DNA of 64,000 nt from Bacteroidales bacterium (GCA_012838865.1 DUOK01000233.1:3512-67511), one strand, 5' to 3'. Shown: positions 4,971 through 61,067, counted from the stretch's first letter. The notes: generated by a model from the letters alone, not told the origin. Made by a program: numbers and translations.

Positions 4971-6146
4971 CTATAAAGCCTCCAGAAAGCGATGCAAGGC
5001 CTGAACCTGTACCGGTCGGTTGAAGGCTGTTGCCGCCATATGGCGGCAACGACTGCGCATCGCAGCCAGGTCGGCTTCTGCCAAACGGGCAAAGTTTTCT
5101 TTCAGGGCCGCCAAATCGCCGGGACGATTTACCCATCCTAAGTCGTTCTCTGCAACAATGCGTGCCCCCTCTCCTTCACCGGAAAATAAAATGGGGAGCC
5201 CCGCTGCCATGGCCTCGTAAATTTTAGAGGGAACGGCACCATAAATATTTTTAGTCAGCGGAATCAGCGCAGCATGATGTTGCACCAGCACTCCGGGAAT
5301 CTCCTCCCGCTGCAACACCCCGCCATAATAAATACCCCGCTCAGGATGCTCCGCCAGATAGGCCTCCAGTTCCTCCTTTTCGGCTCCTGCACCATATATA
5401 TGAAATTCCAGTCCCAGCTCCCGAAAATCAAGGGCACGACAAAGGCCCAGTATGCCCTGGGCTACCCCCAGTAGACCCGCATACACCACCTTGCGCGACC
5501 CCTGGTCGGCCGCCGGCTCCAGGGAGCGGAAACGCGCATAATCAACCCCGTTACGAAACAGGAAGGTCTGACCAAACCCACGCTCCCTAATGTAGGTAAC
5601 AATTTCCTGCGACTGCCCCAAAATACCTGCCGAGCGACGGTAAACAAAACGCTCCAGTCGCTCCAGTGCCCGATACAGGGTACCGCGCGACAAGGCGCCC
5701 AACTCCAGCGCAGATAAAGGCCAAAGGTCCGACACGTTGGTCACCATTCGCGCACCGGAGGCTTTCGCCAGCAGCCAGGCGGTCAGTGCCAGGGTTAAGG
5801 GGGGACTCTCCACCACCAACAAGTCGGGCTGCTTTTGGCGACAAAAGCGCCAGGCAAAAAGGGCGGTGAAAGAAAAGGACAGCATACTTAAAATACGCGG
5901 CAGAGTGCGCCTCGAGTTCGATGCATAGAGCCAAAAGCGCAAAAGAGCAATCCCGTCGCGCTCCTCACGCAAGGCAAAGCGTCCACGAAAATCCTTGAAA
6001 ATACGGCCCTCCGGATAATTGGGCAGGGCAGTAACCACCGACACTTCAGCACCCAAGGCTTTGAGGCCCCGAAGCATCTCAAAAAGACGACTCTGCGGAG
6101 CACCCATCTCGGGCCGGTAATACTGGGTCAATAAAACAATACGCAT
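4971..6146 (-). CDS. GT4 family glycosyltransferase (WbuB-like)
   Basis: LTQYYRPEMGAPQSR, TALPNYPEG, ESPPL, VSDLWP, VPSKIYEAMAAGLPI. Confidence 0.9.
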   Translation of the reverse strand: MRIVLLTQYYRPEMGAPQSRLFEMLRGLKALGAEVSVVTALPNYPEGRIFKDFRGRFALREERDGIALLRFWLYASNSRRTLPRILSMLSFSFTALFAWRFCRQKQPDLLVVESPPLTLALTAWLLAKASGARMVTNVSDLWPLSALELGALSRGTLYRALERLERFVYRRSAGILGQSQEIVTYIRERGFGQTFLFRNGVDYARFRSLEPAADQGSRKVVYAGLLGVAQGILGLCRALDFRELGLEFHIYGAGAEKEELEAYLAEHPERGIYYGGVLQREEIPGVLVQHHAALIPLTKNIYGAVPSKIYEAMAAGLPILFSGEGEGARIVAENDLGWVNRPGDLAALKENFARLAEADLAAMRSRCRHMAATAFNRPVQVQALHRFLEAL

Positions 6147-48770: not shown

Positions 48771-49168
48771 GGGGCTGACCTGGATTTGACAGCAAGGCTA
48801 AGTGGTAAGTAAGCATGCCGAGCAATGGGATACCGGCTCGTAAATCATGGATCTCAACTTTTTTAACTGGCGAATCTAATTACGCTCTCGCCGCCTAATC
48901 GAAGTACAGTAGATGGGCATTATCCTTGCTCCAGGAGCTTGGACGAGACACTTCCCGGGTGCCAATTCCTGAGGCGGCCCGAATCGGAGGTGTAGAAATA
49001 TCGGGAATAGCCGGCGAGCGGCCTTTGCTCAAGGGCGAAACTTTAAGAGGCTAAGGAGTCGTCCGGGTGTCTGTTCCCAAACGACTCACGAAAACCAACA
49101 GCAGAATAAGCATGTAGAAAGCTTATGGCTTACTTGTTTGGACGAGGGTTCGATTCCCTCCAGCTCCA
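48771..49168 (+). ncRNA. ssrA: transfer-messenger RNA (tmRNA)
   Basis: 5' GGGGCTGACCTGGATTTGAC pairs with 3' CAGCTCC-A. T-arm GAGGGTTCGATTCCCTC. Tag ORF GESNYALAA* at 48869-48898. CCA not encoded. Confidence 0.97.
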
Positions 49169-49172
49169 CACT

Positions 49173-51948: not shown

Positions 51949-52452
51949 CTATCTCGAAAAATTAGCCAGCTGACTGCTCACCATAAGATTTTTAGTCTGA
52001 GCCAGCTCTTCATCCAGGCGAATACCTAATTTGCCTGCTTCCACAGAAAAATTGATGACAGAACCCTGGGGCTGTCGTCCCTGATTCTCGGTCACAACCA
52101 AAACCGGACGATTACTAATGGCTGTAGCCATGCGTGAAAAGCTGTTGAGACTGCGATTGGGCACAAAAAGCAAATGGCAATTAGCTGCTTCTGTAGCAGA
52201 ACTCAACTCTACAACTTCAATGTTCTTGCCGGCAACAGTGCGACTACCCATTCCGTCCTTCAGTTCCTTGGTAATCTCTTCGCCGCTGCCTAAAACCCCA
52301 ATAACAAAAGCAGGGTCCTTGTAAATCTCGGGCCACTGCACCAGACGGGTAAAATTGTAAATAAAGGTAGCCTGATGCTTCTCCAGTTGTGCGGATGCAT
52401 TGTCAACTGCAAAGAAGGCAAGTACCATTAAAAGTAAAAGTGACTTTCTCAT
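51949..52452 (-). CDS. YfiR/HmsC family (DUF4154) periplasmic protein
   Basis: Signal peptide, ATFIYNFTRLVQWP, FVIGVLG, CHLLFVP, VLVVTE, INFSVEAGKLG, VSSQL. Confidence 0.85.
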   Translation of the reverse strand: MRKSLLLLMVLAFFAVDNASAQLEKHQATFIYNFTRLVQWPEIYKDPAFVIGVLGSGEEITKELKDGMGSRTVAGKNIEVVELSSATEAANCHLLFVPNRSLNSFSRMATAISNRPVLVVTENQGRQPQGSVINFSVEAGKLGIRLDEELAQTKNLMVSSQLANFSR

Positions 52453-52739: not shown

Positions 52740-53582
52740 TTACACATCCATCAGGTTTTCAAAAGCAGAGGTAACTGCTTGTGCATAACTGCGTGAAACG
52801 GGTATGGAAAGCTGGCCTTCCTCATCCATCCACAGCTTAAACTGCCCCTTATCCCTTTTCAGCATCTTCACGCGATGGATGTTGACCATATACGAACGGT
52901 GACAGCGAAGCAGGGGAAAATCTTCCAACATTTGCTCGAGACGCTTTAGAGTGTTCCGCAGCAGAAAGGACTTGACCTTAATCCCTGCCTGAAAATAAAT
53001 CACCACGTAGTTGTCGCTGGCCTCCAAATAAATTAAATCGCTGGACTTGATGGTGAGCCGCAAGACTTCATTTTCATCCCGAAAGAGAATAAACTGCGGC
53101 CTTTTCCGAATCTGCCGCACCAAGGCATCCAGACTCATCTTCTTTTCGCGCCAGGCAAAAAACAAGAGACTGATTAAATAGGGGATCAAAAGAATCAGGG
53201 AAGTATTCTGCACGGCAACATACAAAAGCACGCCAAAAGGTCGCACACCACCCAACACCACCAACTCAAGCACCGCATACAGCACGCCCATAAAAAAAAT
53301 CTCTGCCACCACACTCCAGGCGTAATAGGTCAAGGTCACAGGACGCCGACGTTGACGCAATTGCATCAACAGTCTGCTGATGATAACCACCACCATACCG
53401 GCCATTACCAAAGCACCCGAAGCCAACAAAAAAGCCCACCAGCGCACATCGTACCATTCGCCGGCACCAAAGGGTCGATAAATATTAATGAAGAAAAAGG
53501 CAAACAGGGCAGTAAACACTATCTGAAGAATCGTATTTCGCCGGGTAACAAAGTACTCCGGAATCACTTTGGGATTTTTCAT
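52740..53582 (-). CDS. membrane-anchored LytTR family transcriptional regulator (no receiver domain)
   Basis: Four TM segments, then IYLEASDNYV, LRNTLKRLE, RCHRSYMVN, IPVSRSY. Confidence 0.9.
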   Translation of the reverse strand: MKNPKVIPEYFVTRRNTILQIVFTALFAFFFINIYRPFGAGEWYDVRWWAFLLASGALVMAGMVVVIISRLLMQLRQRRRPVTLTYYAWSVVAEIFFMGVLYAVLELVVLGGVRPFGVLLYVAVQNTSLILLIPYLISLLFFAWREKKMSLDALVRQIRKRPQFILFRDENEVLRLTIKSSDLIYLEASDNYVVIYFQAGIKVKSFLLRNTLKRLEQMLEDFPLLRCHRSYMVNIHRVKMLKRDKGQFKLWMDEEGQLSIPVSRSYAQAVTSAFENLMDV

Positions 53583-53610
53583 AGTTACAGTGGTCTTCTT
53601 TTGCGTGGAG

Positions 53611-53618
53611 CAAATATA
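53611..53618 (-). promoter_or_regulatory. -7 element TATATTTG of the LytTR gene
   Basis: Consensus match. A TTG lies 20 nt further upstream, at 53639-53641. Confidence 0.6.
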
Positions 53619-53639
53619 AGAGAAAAAACAAAGGCGTTC

Positions 53640-53693
53640 AATTCACCCCAGAAAAACAAAATTCACCCCAGACAAAAAACCACTCACCCCTAA
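53640..53693. repeat. three direct repeats with TCACCCC core at 20-21 bp period (candidate LytTR operator)
   Basis: AATTCACCCCAGA twice plus ACTCACCCCTAAA. Cores at 53643, 53663 and 53684, with A-rich spacers. Confidence 0.7.
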
Positions 53694-53771
53694 ACCGCGA
53701 CAAACACTCCTTTTTTCGAACAGCTATTAAGGATTGTTTTTTCTTTGCAGGTACAGGAACATTCAGTTGGT

Positions 53772-53935
53772 CTTTTCAAAGAGACTTGTAGTGCATTTGA
53801 ACACTGCCCGGAGCCATTCCCGCCAGTCTGTTCTCCGGCATGAGGGTCGGTTCTCAAGTGCCAATTCTCTTTTTGAAAAGCAAGCAGAAAAAAGTCCCGA
53901 TTTTGGCAAACGTGCCAATCGGGGCTTTTCTGTAC
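53772..53935 (+). ncRNA. candidate structured ncRNA (6S-like rod plus terminator)
   Basis: Nested complementary blocks across 53772-53880, followed by hairpin 53890-53929 and a U-rich tail. G-U pairs favour the plus strand. No credible ORF. Confidence 0.45.
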
Positions 53936-53952
53936 TTTTTGACGCAAAAAAT

Positions 53953-53982
53953 TTTGGACAGCGACTTTTTTTTATATTTTTG
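53953..53982 (+). promoter_or_regulatory. promoter of tRNA-Thr (TTTG-N18-TATTTTTG)
   Basis: -33 TTTG at 53953-53956 and -7 TATTTTTG at 53975-53982. Confidence 0.55.
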
Positions 53983-54018
53983 CACCGCCTTTCCGCTTAT
54001 GGAGAGTCTCCAAAAAAA

Positions 54019-54090
<72 letters not shown>

Positions 54091-54095
54091 CTTTT

Positions 54096-57000
54096 CTATT
54101 CCTTCACAATCTTCCTATAATACAACGAACGACCGGCACGCAACTGCAGGATATAGACTCCGGCGGGTAAATCACTCATTTGCCACTCAAAACGGGTATA
54201 GGCTTCCACTTGCATTTCCCGAACCAGTCTTCCGCCGACATCAAACAATTGCAGCTGCACCAAGCCATACAAACCATCCACCCTCAATACATTCCCGACC
54301 GGGTTGGGCGCCACCTTAACGGCTTTATCTGGAATGGCCATACTGTCGGTACGAACCACTTCCAACATCAGTTTTAAGGAAACATCTCCGTCCACTTCGA
54401 AGCTGCCACTTTGTGGCACAAAACCAAAAGCACTCACCTCATAAGCATAAGTCGCAGCTTGCATCAAACCGCGCACTTCCACCCTTCCTTGTTCATCGGA
54501 AAACAACTCCTGGTCGGCCACCTTCAGCCGGGCCCCGGCAATGGGCGCACCCTGCGCATCAGCGACCTCCAACACCAATATCCCGCAAGCATCCAAAAGA
54601 AAGGCTGGCGACCAGGTCCCGGCAGCGCCGTAAAGCTGGTCCCTCACCCGCAACTCCACCGTATTATCGAGACAATTTTCCAGCGCAAGAACACGCTGAT
54701 TGGCGGAAAATCCTTCCAGCAGGGCTTGTACTACTGACCCATTGACCCGCAACTCGTAAGCCCAGCGTCCGGTTGTGGTCTCCACATCCGAAACCCTTGC
54801 TGGGGCAAGTTTTTTCACAAAGGCATGACGTTCAACTGCCGGCGAAAGCCTTGCAACAGACCGCTTGTCAGCACCGGTCACCTTCTGCAGAGCCCCCAAA
54901 GGCAGCCTTGCTTCGGGTCCCACCACCAAATTGTCCAACAAAAACACAAAGCGATTGTCCGATACATACTGTATTGCAAAGCGTATGCGCTTACCCGCAT
55001 AGTCCGCCAAATCAAAGCGGAAGGGGGTCCAGGAGAGCGGAGCCTCCAGGACTTCGCCATTCAACTGCACGTAGTTGCCCGAACCATCGGTCAGATTGCT
55101 GACCCACACATGAAACTGCTCCAGCCCATATTTATCGGAAACAGAACGGGCCATGAATTGCAGAAAATCTCCTTCACCGACTTCCAGCTCAGGCGAAATC
55201 AACCAATCGTTGTTGGGCACATTACGTGCAGCAAAGGCAGCTAAAACATGACGCCCGCGATGGGCTGAAAAATCGTATTCCGACTGCAACAAACCTTCAT
55301 AATAGGGGTCTACCACCATAAAGGAACCGGTATAACCCGAATTGGGGAAGGACAAATCGCGGTAGGTCCAGGTCACTGCCTGATCCACATCCCTGAAAGT
55401 CCAGCCCGGCACGCTCAGCTCAAACGGCAGATAGCCGTCGAAAGACTCATCAACCACAGGATTCCAGAAAACTGTACTTAAGTCACTTTGCTTTTCCGCC
55501 CGGCTCAAAGTCACAGTCGGTACGATGAGCGGTCGCAGATCGACCGAGATATCCTGAGCCGAAATGGACTCAAAAGGCTGCCAATGCGTTTCATACCCGG
55601 GGGCTTCGACTTGCAAGACCTGCTTACTCAGGGTGTGTCCGACCGAAAAAGCGACCACGCCCTGTTGGTCGCTCACACCTTCCTGAGGCCCCACCATTAC
55701 GCGTGCCCCCTCAAGACTTTCTCCATGGCCATTCACACGCACCTTTAAAGGATAAAACACCTGTTCGGTTACATACTGCCCCCGAAGCGGTGTCAGAGCA
55801 GGCACGCCATCTTCGCCGTAACCAAAAAAGGAGATATGGTAAACGGACGAATGGTCGAGTCCGCTCAAAACAAAACCCTCCGCATTACCCGCATATACCA
55901 ATCGTGCCCCACCTGCACCTTCCGGTGCCGCAGCAAAGTCCGTATCATAACCAGCACCCAATCCTACCGGGGGCAAATCAAAAACCTCATCATCTTTGCG
56001 AGCCAAGACCATTATGCCCCCTTGCGGATCGGGCAGACTCCAGCTGAAGGACAGGCTGTTTTGATCGTAAGCAGTCCACTGCACCCCGGAAACTACCGGA
56101 GCTGTTTCCAGACCATGCCCCGCCTCATAAACCTTCACTGCATCCAGGGCCAGTCCGTAGCCATAATAACTGAGTCCTTCAAAGGCAATTTCATAACGAC
56201 CTCCGGCAGCCGGCAACTCCACCCTTCGCTGCGTCCAATTCAACAATTCTTCATCATAGAATGCCAGGGACGTCCATGCTCCCCCCTCTTCTCTGAAAAG
56301 CACCCGCAGGTGATCCTGATCCCCATCCCACGCAGCCTGATAATGCCAAAAATCCATGACATAAGTCCTTCCTTCCTCCAGAGCTAAAACAGGCGACACT
56401 AAGCGCGTACTGCGCTCATCGGCAACAGCTGCGTGAAAAAAAGCAAATTGTTCACCTTCCAAAGCGACTGCGGGCTCACCATGTGCGCCCGCACTGCGTT
56501 GCTCCCACATAAAACTACCTGAAACTAATTCCTGCTGCCAGTCCCACAAGCCCCCTTCAAAACCATCAAACCAAGGGAAACTGGTCACCGCCGCCGCCCT
56601 GGTACGATCTGAGGCGTAAAGTGGCGCCGACCATTCAACGTCGCCCCGACTCCATAGTGCATAATGATAAACGGTGGCTCCTTCCAAACCCATATGATTC
56701 ATTTCAGACAGATCGGCTCCTGCATACAACACCTCGCCTCCGCCGGGAATCGTTTCTCCTGCGGCATAAACGATCCCTTCTTCAGGAATCCCAAACACCC
56801 CATCGGGACTCCAGGCCAGCAACACGGGACGACCTTCCACCGCCGGCTGCCAGGATACATTCATTTGATCGGCCGCAACTGCAGAGGCGTGGAGGGACAG
56901 CGGACTCCCATTCTGAATGGCCATAAAGTCAAAGGCGATGCTGTTGCCCTCGCTCACAATCCCAGTGAGACTCCTATTGTAAGGCAGGTCGCTCCACGTC

Positions 57001-58547: not shown

Positions 58548-61067
58548 CTAATCCATATCTACGATGGTTATACCCGCACCGCCAAACTGGACGTGCTCAT
58601 CGGCAAAACGCCGAACAAAGGGCAAAGTGTTCAAATACTCCCGAATCATGAGACGCAAAGCCCCCGTACCCTTCCCATGCAGGATTTTAACCTGGGCAGC
58701 TCCACACATTACCGCCTCGTCCAAATGCTGACTGACCCGGTCAAGGGCTTCCTCAGCACGCATGCCGCGTACATCAAGATCGGGTTTAAAACTCAGCTTT
58801 TTATCGCGCATCCGCTGAGCCAGAGAGGCCGACACCGTACTTTCCTGTCGCAGTTCTTTTTTGTAAGCATTGCGACTGAGTTTTTCGAGTCGACTCAGCT
58901 TCACGGTGGTAACCAACTGTCCAAAAGCCACCATGGCATTCTTCCCCTTGATTTCCATTACCTCACCGGCCTGGGTCTGACCCTGCAAACGCACATAGTC
59001 GCCCTCCTGCACGGCATCGTTTTCAGCCGCAAGTCTTTTCTCCTTGGGCGCAGCAGCTGAAACAGGCTCCGCTCCCTCGGCTGCATGCTGCTCACCCTTG
59101 GGCTTTGCCCCCTTCTTCCTTTGCTGCAACTTGGCCATTTTTCGGGCCAATCGGGCTTGTTCCTCCGAATCGGACGCGCCCGCTTCAGCAAGTTGCTCCT
59201 TAAAACCATCCAAAGCCTTACGTGCCAGGCGGGTCTTCTCTTTTTCCGCCTGACTTTCCCGAATCACCCTTATGGTGTTCTCAATTTCCTTGTTGGCGCC
59301 GGCCAACAAGGCCTCTGCCTCCCTTCGGGCTTTATCGAGCAGCTCGCGCCGCTCCTTTTGCAAGTGCTCCAGCTCCTTTTCATAACGTTCCGACACCCCC
59401 TCCAGTTTGCGTTCCCTGTCGCGTACCAATCGCCGCTTCTGCTCCCAGTAGCGCTTGTCGCGAATGATCTCGCGCAGGTGCTTGTCAAAATGAATGTGGT
59501 CCTCCCCCAAACGCTCTTTAGCCGCCGCCAGTATGTCCTCCGGCAAACCTATTTTTCGGGCAATTTCAAAAGCAAAGGAGCTGCCCGGCGACCCCACCTC
59601 CAACTTAAACAAGGGGCGCAACTCATGCGTATCAAATTGCATGGCTCCGTTAACCAGTCCCGCCGTTTGCGAGGCAAAATGTTTCAGATTGGTATAATGC
59701 GTGGTAATTACCCCATAAGCACCCTGCCGGTTCAACTGATCCAACACGGCCTCCGCAATGGCACCACCCAACATGGGTTCTGTACCCGTACCAAATTCAT
59801 CAATTAATAAAAGCGTGCGTGCATTGGCCTGTCGCACAAAATTTTTCATATTGAGCAAGTGCGAGCTGTAGGTACTCAAATCATTTTCAATAGATTGCTC
59901 GTCGCCCAAATCAAGTAAGATGTGCTCGAAAAAACCCATCTGAGAACCCTCCTCAACCGGGACCGGCAAACCGCATTGCAGCATATACTGAACCAGTCCC
60001 ACCGTTTGCAAACAAACCGATTTTCCTCCGGCATTGGGTCCGGAAATCAAAACAATTCGCGAATCGGGCGTAAAGGTGATGGACAAAGGAACCACCTCCT
60101 TTTGCTGGGCTTTATGCAGCAAATACAATAAAGGATGACGGGCTTCACGCCACTCAAAATCAGGCCGGTTGTGCAACTCAGGCACCCTGCCCGCAATGCG
60201 GGACGAAAAACGTGCCTTGGCACGAATAAAATCAATCTCTCCTAAAAATTCATAGGCAAAGAGCAATTCCTCCAAATAGGGGCGAATAAAAGAAGATACT
60301 TCGGTTAAAATCCGGGTTGTTTCACGACGCTCAGCATAAGACAGCTCCCGGATCTCATTGTTGATCTCCACAATTTCGGCAGGCTCAATGTAAGTGGTTT
60401 TACCTGTAGCCGACTCATCATGTACAATTCCGGGCAACTTACGCTTGTTGGCCGACACTACAGGAATAACTGCCCTGCCGTCGCGAATACTGATGCTCAC
60501 ATCGGCATCCACCAATCCGTCTTGTCGCGCCTTTTTTAAGATGCTCATCATCTTGCGCGACACGCTCTGTTGCAGATTAAGCACCTCGCGGCGTAAGCGG
60601 GCCAACTCAGGCGACGCATTATCCTTCAGTTTCCCCTGCTTGTTCAGCACAGCATCAATCTGCTCTATGACGGCGGGATACACCATTACATCTGCTGCCA
60701 GGGCATGCAGACGGGGAAAATCTTCCACTTCACGCGACTGGATAAAGCGCAGCAAGTCGCGAATGGTTCCCAGGGAACGACGCAAGTCAAACAGCTCCTG
60801 TTCTTCTAAAAACAAGCCCTCCACCCGAATCTTCTTTAGGGCCGAACGCACGTCAATAAAGTAGGTCACCGGCAGCTCGGCACCTTCCTCTTCAAGGCGC
60901 AGCACCTCAGCAGTCTGCTCCAACCAGCACAACACCTCCTCAAAATGGGTCGAAAAGCCCATCGCCTCGACCCGCTCCTCGCCCAGGGGACTCAAACAAT
61001 GCTCGGCCAGGAGCCTGCGAATCCGGCCAAAATTCAGTTTCTGTTCAAATGCATTCGGATAAATCAC
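58548..61067 (-). CDS. mutS2: endonuclease MutS2
   Basis: GIVHDESATGKT, SGPNAGGKSVCL, LSTYSSHL, LIDEFGTGTEP, TTHY, Smr domain LDVRGMR...HGKGTG. Confidence 0.96.
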   Translation of the reverse strand: MIYPNAFEQKLNFGRIRRLLAEHCLSPLGEERVEAMGFSTHFEEVLCWLEQTAEVLRLEEEGAELPVTYFIDVRSALKKIRVEGLFLEEQELFDLRRSLGTIRDLLRFIQSREVEDFPRLHALAADVMVYPAVIEQIDAVLNKQGKLKDNASPELARLRREVLNLQQSVSRKMMSILKKARQDGLVDADVSISIRDGRAVIPVVSANKRKLPGIVHDESATGKTTYIEPAEIVEINNEIRELSYAERRETTRILTEVSSFIRPYLEELLFAYEFLGEIDFIRAKARFSSRIAGRVPELHNRPDFEWREARHPLLYLLHKAQQKEVVPLSITFTPDSRIVLISGPNAGGKSVCLQTVGLVQYMLQCGLPVPVEEGSQMGFFEHILLDLGDEQSIENDLSTYSSHLLNMKNFVRQANARTLLLIDEFGTGTEPMLGGAIAEAVLDQLNRQGAYGVITTHYTNLKHFASQTAGLVNGAMQFDTHELRPLFKLEVGSPGSSFAFEIARKIGLPEDILAAAKERLGEDHIHFDKHLREIIRDKRYWEQKRRLVRDRERKLEGVSERYEKELEHLQKERRELLDKARREAEALLAGANKEIENTIRVIRESQAEKEKTRLARKALDGFKEQLAEAGASDSEEQARLARKMAKLQQRKKGAKPKGEQHAAEGAEPVSAAAPKEKRLAAENDAVQEGDYVRLQGQTQAGEVMEIKGKNAMVAFGQLVTTVKLSRLEKLSRNAYKKELRQESTVSASLAQRMRDKKLSFKPDLDVRGMRAEEALDRVSQHLDEAVMCGAAQVKILHGKGTGALRLMIREYLNTLPFVRRFADEHVQFGGAGITIVDMD

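Follow-up and report, generated by a model that had tools for sequence, protein, structure and literature searches.

The small RNA (sRNA) OxyS of the Enterobacteriaceae arose next to oxyR out of part of a peroxidase mRNA (Krieger et al. 2022, PMC8825220), and is the clearest of the very few worked cases of how a bacterial sRNA originates and enters a regulon. In Staphylococcus, the agr P2/P3 system brings together AgrA, which belongs to the LytTR regulators, and the regulatory RNA RNAIII (PMC4227749), while for Bacteroides, base-pairing sRNAs from intergenic regions, of the GibS type, have been described (Ryan et al. 2020, PMC7366714). Here we describe an element that can be set beside all three, found in a stretch of 64,000 nucleotides (nt) from a Bacteroidales bacterium (GCA_012838865.1, DUOK01000233.1:3512-67511), which is called the window and whose positions are counted from its first letter. 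The element, called the rod, is an irregular hairpin of about 109 nt at 53772-53880 on the plus strand, homologous to codons ~205-240 of a DUF6051 gene that this genome has lost. That it is a structured RNA of the plus strand under selection appears very probable. The explanation that we favor, and consider reasonably probable, is that it forms part of a LytTR-driven base-pairing sRNA, which has outlived the protein half of a dual-function DUF6051 mRNA and whose candidate target is the leader of an E1 2-oxoacid dehydrogenase gene.

When positions 53740-53945 were compared by BLAST with 60 relatives, a full-length match was found in one congener, Geofilum rhodophaeum HF401 (94% identical), and short near-perfect matches to the central 25-40 nt were found elsewhere, lying in five genomes inside an open reading frame (ORF). 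This ORF encodes a 381-amino acid (aa) DUF6051 protein (PF19519, E 2e-91), a member of an uncharacterised alpha/beta-hydrolase family (PMC11878206). The gene-bearing loci (genomes G001, G002, G005, G013, G024 and G066 and metagenome contig L047; G, C and L numbers are our own handles for genomes, contigs and loci) have the order LytTR gene (-), DUF6051 (+), [tRNA-Gly, tRNA-Thr], M6 protease (-). In the window, G. rhodophaeum, Alkalitalea saponilacus, Natronoflexus pectinivorans, G012 and metagenome contig L040, the same slot holds the rod only, and no DUF6051 gene is present in the window's own genome (G000). Because the window's successive blocks match the LytTR-DUF6051 intergenic region (53638-53717), the interior of the DUF6051 gene (53800-53838) and the tRNA promoter region (53933-53992), two flanking deletions are indicated, which would have taken ~650 nt of 5' and ~330 nt of 3' coding sequence and left ~107 nt. 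A covariance model built from six coding copies only (alignment A3, model R1) finds 53773-53879 (+) over its full length (38.2 bits, E 2e-9) and also recovers the other stand-alone rods. Synteny settles the relation: as judged from the sequence, the rod is an internal fragment of the DUF6051 gene.

The likeness to OxyS is in the kind of event. In both, an sRNA, here a predicted one, has replaced a coding gene divergent to its transcription factor, has arisen from a gene fragment and has kept the ancestral regulator; at this locus the rod has homology to the gene of the same syntenic slot, and the ancestral promoter and regulator sites are retained. The rod differs in belonging to another phylum, in its regulator (LytTR, where OxyS has OxyR/LysR) and in showing no sequence homology to OxyS. 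It differs also in that selection at the nucleotide level acted on the element while the coding sequence around it was still intact, that the frame was lost at least three times independently, and that one genome shows a duplicated, subfunctionalised intermediate.

The selection inside the gene can be seen at silent positions. The intact orthologues of the clade all fold into the same rod over the codons YSIGALLAEILLIANPASLFSGERAFLFCGGATID, with the loop AAUCCCGCCAGUCUGUUCUCC open. Among five coding orthologues that share 47-59% protein identity, third-codon-position identity is 0.87 over the loop, compared with a whole-gene mean of 0.38, and the seven best 9-codon windows by this measure all overlap the loop. 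Elsewhere in the DUF6051 family, beyond this clade, the loop peptide ANPASLFSG gives way to diverse sequences (SDPLGMFSN, SNPKQLFST, ANPMGLYTD and others). Because third-position identity peaks at the loop and the peptide varies elsewhere, these seemingly conserved residues of DUF6051 owe their conservation to the RNA and not to the protein.

The same comparison bears on the possibility that the rod is a neutral relic of the DUF6051 gene, its hairpin being a by-product of the encoded amino acids. The rod is indeed a gene fragment, and it has been lost in two congeners (G003 and G004). The DUF6051 genes from outside the clade are already 63-78% paired in the rod register (slid controls, ~45%), and synonymous-codon shuffles of the native coding sequences still reach about -27 kcal/mol; the native folds exceed such shuffles by a moderate z of -1.1 to -2.9 only, because the encoded peptides themselves already favor pairing. 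The hairpin was probably recruited from this pre-existing pairing tendency. A neutral relic is nevertheless very unlikely: five stand-alone lineages have each kept exactly ~105 nt of a 1.1-kb gene and nothing else, their stems have diverged with compensation around a nearly identical loop and reach 89-100% pairing, their LytTR proteins have diverged to 56-65% identity, and promoter and boxes are retained.

In the window itself, all five of the nested pairings proposed in an earlier, sequence-only reading of this DNA are present, including the outer one of CTTTTCAA (53772-53779) with TTGAAAAG (53873-53880), AGAGA (53780-53784) with TCTCT (53866-53870), GCATTTGA (53793-53800) with TCAAGTGC (53854-53861), and the innermost, TGCCCGGAG (53805-53813) with CTCCGGCA (53833-53840). 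RNAfold gives -64.9 kcal/mol for 53755-53940 (+), with a z of -3.9 and none of 200 dinucleotide shuffles equalling it; the rod by itself has a z of -3.1. The innermost helix (CCGGAG/CTCCGG) does exist here, though only in this genome and in G. rhodophaeum; in the wider family its bases are part of a conserved, open 21-nt apical loop. This loop, AUUCCCGCCAGUCUGUUCUCC at 53816-53836 (+), is nearly invariant, closed by GCC/GGC and unpaired in independent minimum free energy (MFE) folds of the relatives; its 5' half reads AAUCCCGCC, and its core CAGUCUGUU is identical in 14 of 14 copies.

Covariation supports the stems. In an 11-sequence alignment, 89% of the cells pair and 18 of the 30 pairs show double-sided changes (43 cells), values that 500 shuffles never reached; slid controls gave 40-52% pairing with 5-10 both-side pairs. 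Independent MFE folds of single sequences give the same rod architecture, and the stand-alone rods have z values of -3.1, -5.2, -4.3 and -5.3, with -0.9 for the AU-rich rod of G065. The suggestion that G-U pairs favor the plus strand is borne out, with 35 G-U cells and 10 A-C cells in the alignment and 10 and 2 in the stand-alone rods; from this excess of G-U, the RNA strand is taken to be the plus strand, which was also the sense strand of the DUF6051 gene. Compensated stems that present an open and nearly invariant 21-nt loop combine the conserved structure and exposed conserved seed that are looked for in an sRNA. No small ORF offers itself in place of an RNA: the DUF6051 frame has a stop at 53798-53800, and a 62-aa ORF at 53840 crosses the terminator described below and has its ATG changed to ACG in G. 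rhodophaeum.

The frame has been lost more than once. In a tree of the LytTR proteins, rod-only G000 and G. rhodophaeum (G006) are sister to gene-bearing G001, G002 and G005 (97/97), rod-bearing G065 groups with gene-bearing G024 and G066 (99/98), and the G034/G011 pair, L040 and G012 form three further branches in an unresolved fork. By this phylogeny, the reading frame would have been lost at least three and up to five times independently, the hairpin being kept each time; the deletion end points and the stem sequences differ from case to case, while the hairpin, the three upstream boxes and the -7 box, both described below, are retained. When 185,579 species genomes were scanned by 20-mer, 7 Marinilabiliaceae genomes proved to have the element, along with 3 matches put down to chance; matches in a gammaproteobacterium, a planctomycete, Novosphingobium and one metagenome contig stand in unrelated contexts, their number being about that due to chance in 596 Gb. 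The covariance model matches 18 of 133 genomes of the family, of which ~12 have the loop and the others show plain DUF6051 coding homology. On these searches, the element is confined to one Marinilabiliaceae clade. It is present as a single syntenic copy per genome, with no reverse transcriptase, integrase or transposase nearby, and so does not look like a mobile element, a template of a diversity-generating retroelement or an att site.

At 52740-53582 on the minus strand, and transcribed divergently from the rod, lies a gene for a 280-aa membrane-anchored LytTR-domain regulator (Pfam LytTR, E 4.6e-20), orthologues of which, 56-95% identical, adjoin the rod or DUF6051 in every related locus; its product is the presumed activator of the rod promoter. 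Three TCACCCC direct repeats (+) follow within 53643-53690, at 53643-53649, 53663-53669 and 53684-53690, with a spacing of 20-21 nt. They are kept in 13 of 13 related loci, gene-bearing or rod-only, and are the only exact tandem array of their kind in the 3.08-Mb genome. A spacing of about two helical turns, a neighbouring LytTR gene and a weak promoter downstream are the arrangement expected of a LytTR promoter, and these repeats are likely to be a LytTR-type operator common to the divergent promoters; their geometry is like that of the AgrA sites at agr P2/P3 (PMC4227749). Between operator and promoter, within the homology block 53638-53717, lies a conserved box, CAAACACTCCTTTTTTC (53701-53717, +), which aligns with CAAACAC(T/G)(C/G)CATTTTTC in G001, G005, G006, G013 and L047 and has the family form CAAACACTCCWTTTTTC.

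The degenerate -7 element noticed in the sequence-only reading has proved to be the box TTTCTTTGCA at 53740-53749 (+), of the form TnnnTTTGCA, and aligns with the same box of the DUF6051 promoter in all related loci; the equivalents are TTACTTTGCA in G001 and G034, TTTCTTTGCA in G013 and G006, and TTATTTTGCA in L047, and the Bacteroidota consensus is TAnnTTTG (PMC7366714). It stands ~50 nt after the third repeat in the aligned loci and, in the window, ~25 nt before the rod; in the gene-bearing loci this is the promoter of DUF6051. Rod transcription would start at ~53755. In nearly every related locus the LytTR gene is followed by a gene, at 51949-52452 in the window, for a DUF4154 (YfiR/HmsC-like) protein that may be a functional partner of the regulator.

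At the far end, the second hairpin of the sequence-only reading is real, at 53884-53932 with a U-rich tail, the whole occupying 53884-53940 (+) with the core GUCCCGAUU..GGCA / UGCCAAUCGGGGC. For 53884-53942 the plus strand gives -27.7 kcal/mol (z -5.6), compared with -22.2 kcal/mol on the minus strand; an upstream A-tract makes the hairpin usable in both directions, and it is kept in G. rhodophaeum with one U-G to C-G change. The promoter architecture, the stem covariation, the G-U bias and a stand-alone unit in G065 support a non-coding unit of the plus strand, G065 being the clearest case among the genomes. In the last of these genomes, DUF6051 is followed by a second set of three boxes, a -7 box, a rod and a clean intrinsic terminator (the duplicated regulatory region lies at ~2350-2660 of L096, G065:C45, minus strand). 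The DUF6051 protein of G065 nests among those of loop-bearing genes on a branch 3-10 times longer, and its loop codons have diverged, as tandem duplication with subfunctionalisation predicts. Of the ~180-nt sRNA with its own promoter and terminator that was first proposed, then, a predicted plus-strand unit of ~185 nt survives the comparative evidence, and its assignment to 6S RNA, to which we return, does not. GibS-type sRNAs resemble this predicted unit in being Bacteroidota sRNAs with a TAnnTTTG-type promoter, an intrinsic terminator, no Hfq and exposed single-stranded segments. They show no homology to the rod, which comes from a coding fragment, has another regulator and has a target proposed by comparative genomics only.

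One might suppose that the rod and the second hairpin are terminators or insulators only, serving the M6 transcript on the minus strand and read-through from an orphaned LytTR-box promoter on the plus strand. The hairpin at 53884-53932 is flanked by A- and U-tracts, a T-run follows directly after the rod in L040 and G034, and in L040 the rod abuts the M6 stop codon. Termination, though, has no need of an invariant 21-nt loop, and the same hairpin stands mid-gene in intact DUF6051 without a U-tract; the rods of G012 and G065 have no adjacent M6 gene, and in the window the M6 gene is set apart from the rod by a tRNA gene and a distinct terminator. We judge this account to be highly improbable.

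The sequence-only reading placed the element between the LytTR gene and tRNA-Thr. That is where it lies in the window, and the link to the tRNA is incidental, since L040, G012 and G065 have the rod without a tRNA; for the same reason, the rod is not taken for a tRNA-Thr processing signal or leader. The tRNA-Thr(GGT), in the stretch 54019-54096, ends at 54091, and the stop codon of the convergent 1468-aa M6 protease gene is at 54096-54098, so that only 4 nt separate the two 3' ends and no terminator intervenes. The protease has a MAM domain and a sorting tail of the type IX secretion system (T9SS).

The identification as a 6S-like RNA, one that would sequester RNA polymerase holoenzyme, has been given up. 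Both 6S RNA (RF00013) and 6S-Flavo (RF01685) resemble the rod in a length of ~180 nt and a mostly double-stranded shape, and the predicted size of ~185 nt fits; in addition, RF00013 reveals no canonical 6S in this genome, so that the 6S slot is formally unfilled. No Rfam family, however, reached its gathering score in the window and none was found in 53580-54020 at E up to 10; the best sub-threshold matches (the rimP leader, 23.6 bits, and ctRNA) fall on the terminator hairpin, far under threshold. RF00013 has no match at E up to 0.001 in the whole 3.08-Mb genome, in a search whose control was positive in 5 of 14 reference genomes; RF01685 likewise gave none genome-wide, with a control positive in no reference genome, so that for this family the local scan at E up to 10 is the only real negative. 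The large central asymmetric bubble that two long helices flank in 6S RNA is also missing: the consensus of 11-14 copies has internal loops of only 2-5 nt, and its large single-stranded part is the apical loop. Nor does the element have the distribution of a housekeeping RNA, being found in ~12 of 133 family genomes, absent from the congeners G003 and G004, and within the DUF6051 coding sequence in seven copies, and its promoter is a LytTR-box promoter, not a housekeeping one. Given the apical loop, the narrow distribution, the coding location in sister genomes and the absence of an Rfam match, the element does not look like a housekeeping open-promoter mimic, and we attach almost no probability to a 6S function. 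The tmRNA lies elsewhere in the window, at 48771-49169.

A candidate for what the loop might recognize came from a genome-wide scan for 13-mer complements with one mismatch allowed. Its 20-30 matches per genome (~10 in a reversed control) are mostly noise, and only one exact match, in G002 and G005, proved fruitful: a 16-nt exact loop complement upstream of the gene for a fused E1 alpha/beta 2-oxoacid dehydrogenase (domains E1_dh, Transket_pyr and Transketolase_C). The loop-complementary site is CGGAGACAGACUGGC; it pairs with 13-16 of the 21 loop bases. The site in the window's own genome, ACGGAGACAGACUGGCA, lies on contig C67, ~74 nt before the ATGGCA start, and forms 15 bp with the loop, one U being bulged. 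Duplexes between loop and site have z values of -4.9 to -7.8 relative to shuffled loops.

In a survey of 28 genomes for the core ACAGACYGGC upstream of E1 on the sense strand, all 11 loop-bearing genomes have the core, with best duplexes of -20 to -31 kcal/mol. It is absent from the 14 outgroups (-10 to -18 kcal/mol) and disrupted in the two congeners that have lost the rod (-17 to -20 kcal/mol), the site in G003 having decayed to ACAAACTGGTGACTGGC and that in G004 having been replaced, while the flanks are conserved in both. The site is thus present in 11 of 11 loop-bearing genomes and in 0 of 16 others, and family-wide its pattern occurs in 6 of 133 genomes, all of this clade. The flanks of the site extend the complementarity lineage by lineage, on the 5' side in genus g1 and on the 3' side, onto CCCGCC, in g6. 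Loop and site also vary together: G024 has the loop GUUUUCC and the site AAAAAC, G065 the loop GUUAUUCC and the site AUAAC, and all other loop-bearing genomes the loop GUUCUCC and the site GGAGA(A)C. As far as sequences can indicate, this is the co-varying, conserved target site that a base-pairing sRNA should have.

Two other accounts of the invariant loop need to be weighed here. In one, the hairpin would be a protein-binding or processing site controlling the stability, localisation or translation of DUF6051 mRNA, and would persist as a decoy in the rod-only genomes. A long stem carrying an invariant loop of 21 nt would equally suit a protein-recognition hairpin, the element first evolved inside an mRNA, and pairing with the E1 site takes up no more than 13-16 of the 21 invariant bases, so that something else must constrain the remainder. 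No candidate protein is linked to the locus, however. The co-variation and joint disappearance of loop and E1 site are not predicted by a protein site, and a cis-only mRNA element would be purposeless after loss of the frame, yet it has been kept at least three times. We regard this as an unlikely explanation.

In the other, the conserved sequence would act as DNA, the loop region and the E1 site being two operators of one protein and the inverted repeats incidental or a cruciform. The E1 site lies between two divergent promoters and may be untranscribed, and the loop (ATTCCCGCCAG) is loosely like the TCACCCCAG boxes. The stem, on the other hand, changes in both arms and yet keeps its pairing, and its G-U pairs would turn into A-C mismatches on the opposite strand or in DNA. 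The distance from the site to the E1 promoter varies from 25 to ~280 nt, the sequence common to both places has no dyad or repeat symmetry, and the base-for-base co-variation seen in G024 and G065 is not required of two operators. A role as DNA therefore seems improbable to us.

Under the favored explanation, the DUF6051 mRNA in the ancestor of this clade, transcribed divergently from the membrane LytTR regulator and from a promoter with three TCACCCC boxes, would have gained a second function in an internal ~105-nt hairpin with a 21-nt loop. In several lineages, deletions on both sides would then have removed the frame, leaving the hairpin fused to the LytTR-box promoter at one end and to a terminator at the other. 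The predicted product here is a plus-strand RNA of ~185 nt (~53755-53940), whose loop would pair antisense with the 13-16-nt complement upstream of the fused E1 gene. The signal sensed by the LytTR protein would thereby be linked to expression of the E1 enzyme; we infer both that the site is transcribed and in which direction regulation runs. The E1 leader contains a CUGUUU that can pair with the site's AGACAG, and it is a matter of speculation that the rod loop acts by displacing this pairing. For the proposal that the rod works through the E1 site at all, we would put the chances as even.

Several observations count against this explanation or weaken its support. A good proximal promoter box, TAAATTTG, adjoins the ATG of E1, and the loop-complementary site is 25 to ~280 nt farther upstream, so that the site may be untranscribed; a distal E1 promoter, formed by an invariant CTGTTTG ~30 nt upstream and a weak -7-like box, is a guess. 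Site and loop share a single origin, and the contrast of 11 of 11 with 0 of 16 therefore amounts to few events, one gain and one or two co-losses. One genome, G014, has the site (duplex -33 kcal/mol; at ~12440-12470 of L118, G014:C30), and its assembly, which is 89% complete, yielded no rod and no LytTR gene; unless the locus is missing from the assembly, this is a real exception to the joint presence of loop and site. The rod is dispensable, the congeners G003 and G004 having lost it along with DUF6051. The covariation comes from an alignment that had been fitted to the model and is biased towards structure, the rod of G065 folds weakly, and the rod of the window is stable on either strand (z -3.9 for plus, -3.4 for minus).

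Some further features of these loci were noted. The loss in G003 (L094, G003:C210, 6905-7731) has left the boxes, the -7 box and the terminator in place, and its LytTR gene is split over two frames, by a frameshift or a sequencing error; in G004 (L093, G004:C126, 3911-4071), the start of the LytTR gene is 160 nt from the M6 stop codon. The E1 leader of the window's genome, which lies outside the window (contig C67, ~5130-5260; L111), has TGGCTGCAAAT after the invariant CTGTTTG and a conserved TAAATTTGTATGC next to the start codon, and a divergent gene upstream of it encodes a 66-aa membrane protein with no family match. No Rfam family covers this leader. A possible sigma-54 promoter upstream of the E1 site (TGGCTGCAAATTGC) was set aside, its GG-GC spacing being one base short and its GC absent in G001.

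Other targets were sought nearer the rod. The best duplex in the window is with the MutS2 mRNA at 59525-59545, where 20 of 22 positions are complementary, but it is conserved only in G000 and G. rhodophaeum among the loop-bearing genomes; we reject it as a target for the whole family, and it is either a chance match or a lineage-specific extra target. The plus strand of this segment, GCCGCCAGTATGTCCTCCGGCA, resembles the rod loop (BLAST, 90% over 21 nt), the complementary MutS2 mRNA being on the minus strand. The LytTR, DUF4154 and M6 mRNAs contain no conserved complement of the loop core, and the recurrent weak local matches to the loop are the G-rich strand of the TCACCCC boxes.

With agr the locus shares a LytTR-domain regulator, an intergenic region between divergent genes that holds direct repeats, the nearest of them ~60 nt from the transcription start, and, in RNAIII, a structured regulatory RNA that is also an mRNA and whose C-rich hairpin loops pair with targets. 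The differences are considerable: AgrA is a phosphorylated response regulator, where the regulator here is a one-component membrane LytTR protein; RNAIII has 514 nt, many hairpins and a 26-aa ORF, where the rod is a single hairpin that stands by itself or within an enzyme ORF of 381 aa; the two are not homologous, and at the rod locus the assignment of the LytTR boxes is by inference. We put forward, with some reserve and at somewhat less than even probability, that this is a Bacteroidota counterpart of agr-RNAIII, in which a membrane LytTR sensor drives a dual-function mRNA whose hairpin regulates a 2-oxoacid dehydrogenase, and that living species preserve every stage in the birth of the sRNA.

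The transition would begin with a sequence that is at once gene and RNA; tandem copies that have subfunctionalised come next, then the RNA by itself, a state arrived at no fewer than three times independently, and finally complete loss, the target site decaying as well. The same element is seen within an enzyme gene, beside a released copy of the gene, alone, and gone, and a distant complementary site tracks it. This natural series is found in Marinilabiliaceae that can be grown, with cultivable isolates for each evolutionary stage: Alkaliflexus imshenetskii has the hairpin inside the gene, while G. rhodophaeum, Alkalitalea saponilacus and Natronoflexus pectinivorans have it alone. It makes testable the ideas that a coding sequence can serve as a trans-acting riboregulator, that an RNA function can outlive the protein, and that a target can co-evolve with it. 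If true, the proposal would also give a first output for the membrane LytTR one-component regulators that are widespread, and uncharacterised, in the Bacteroidota.

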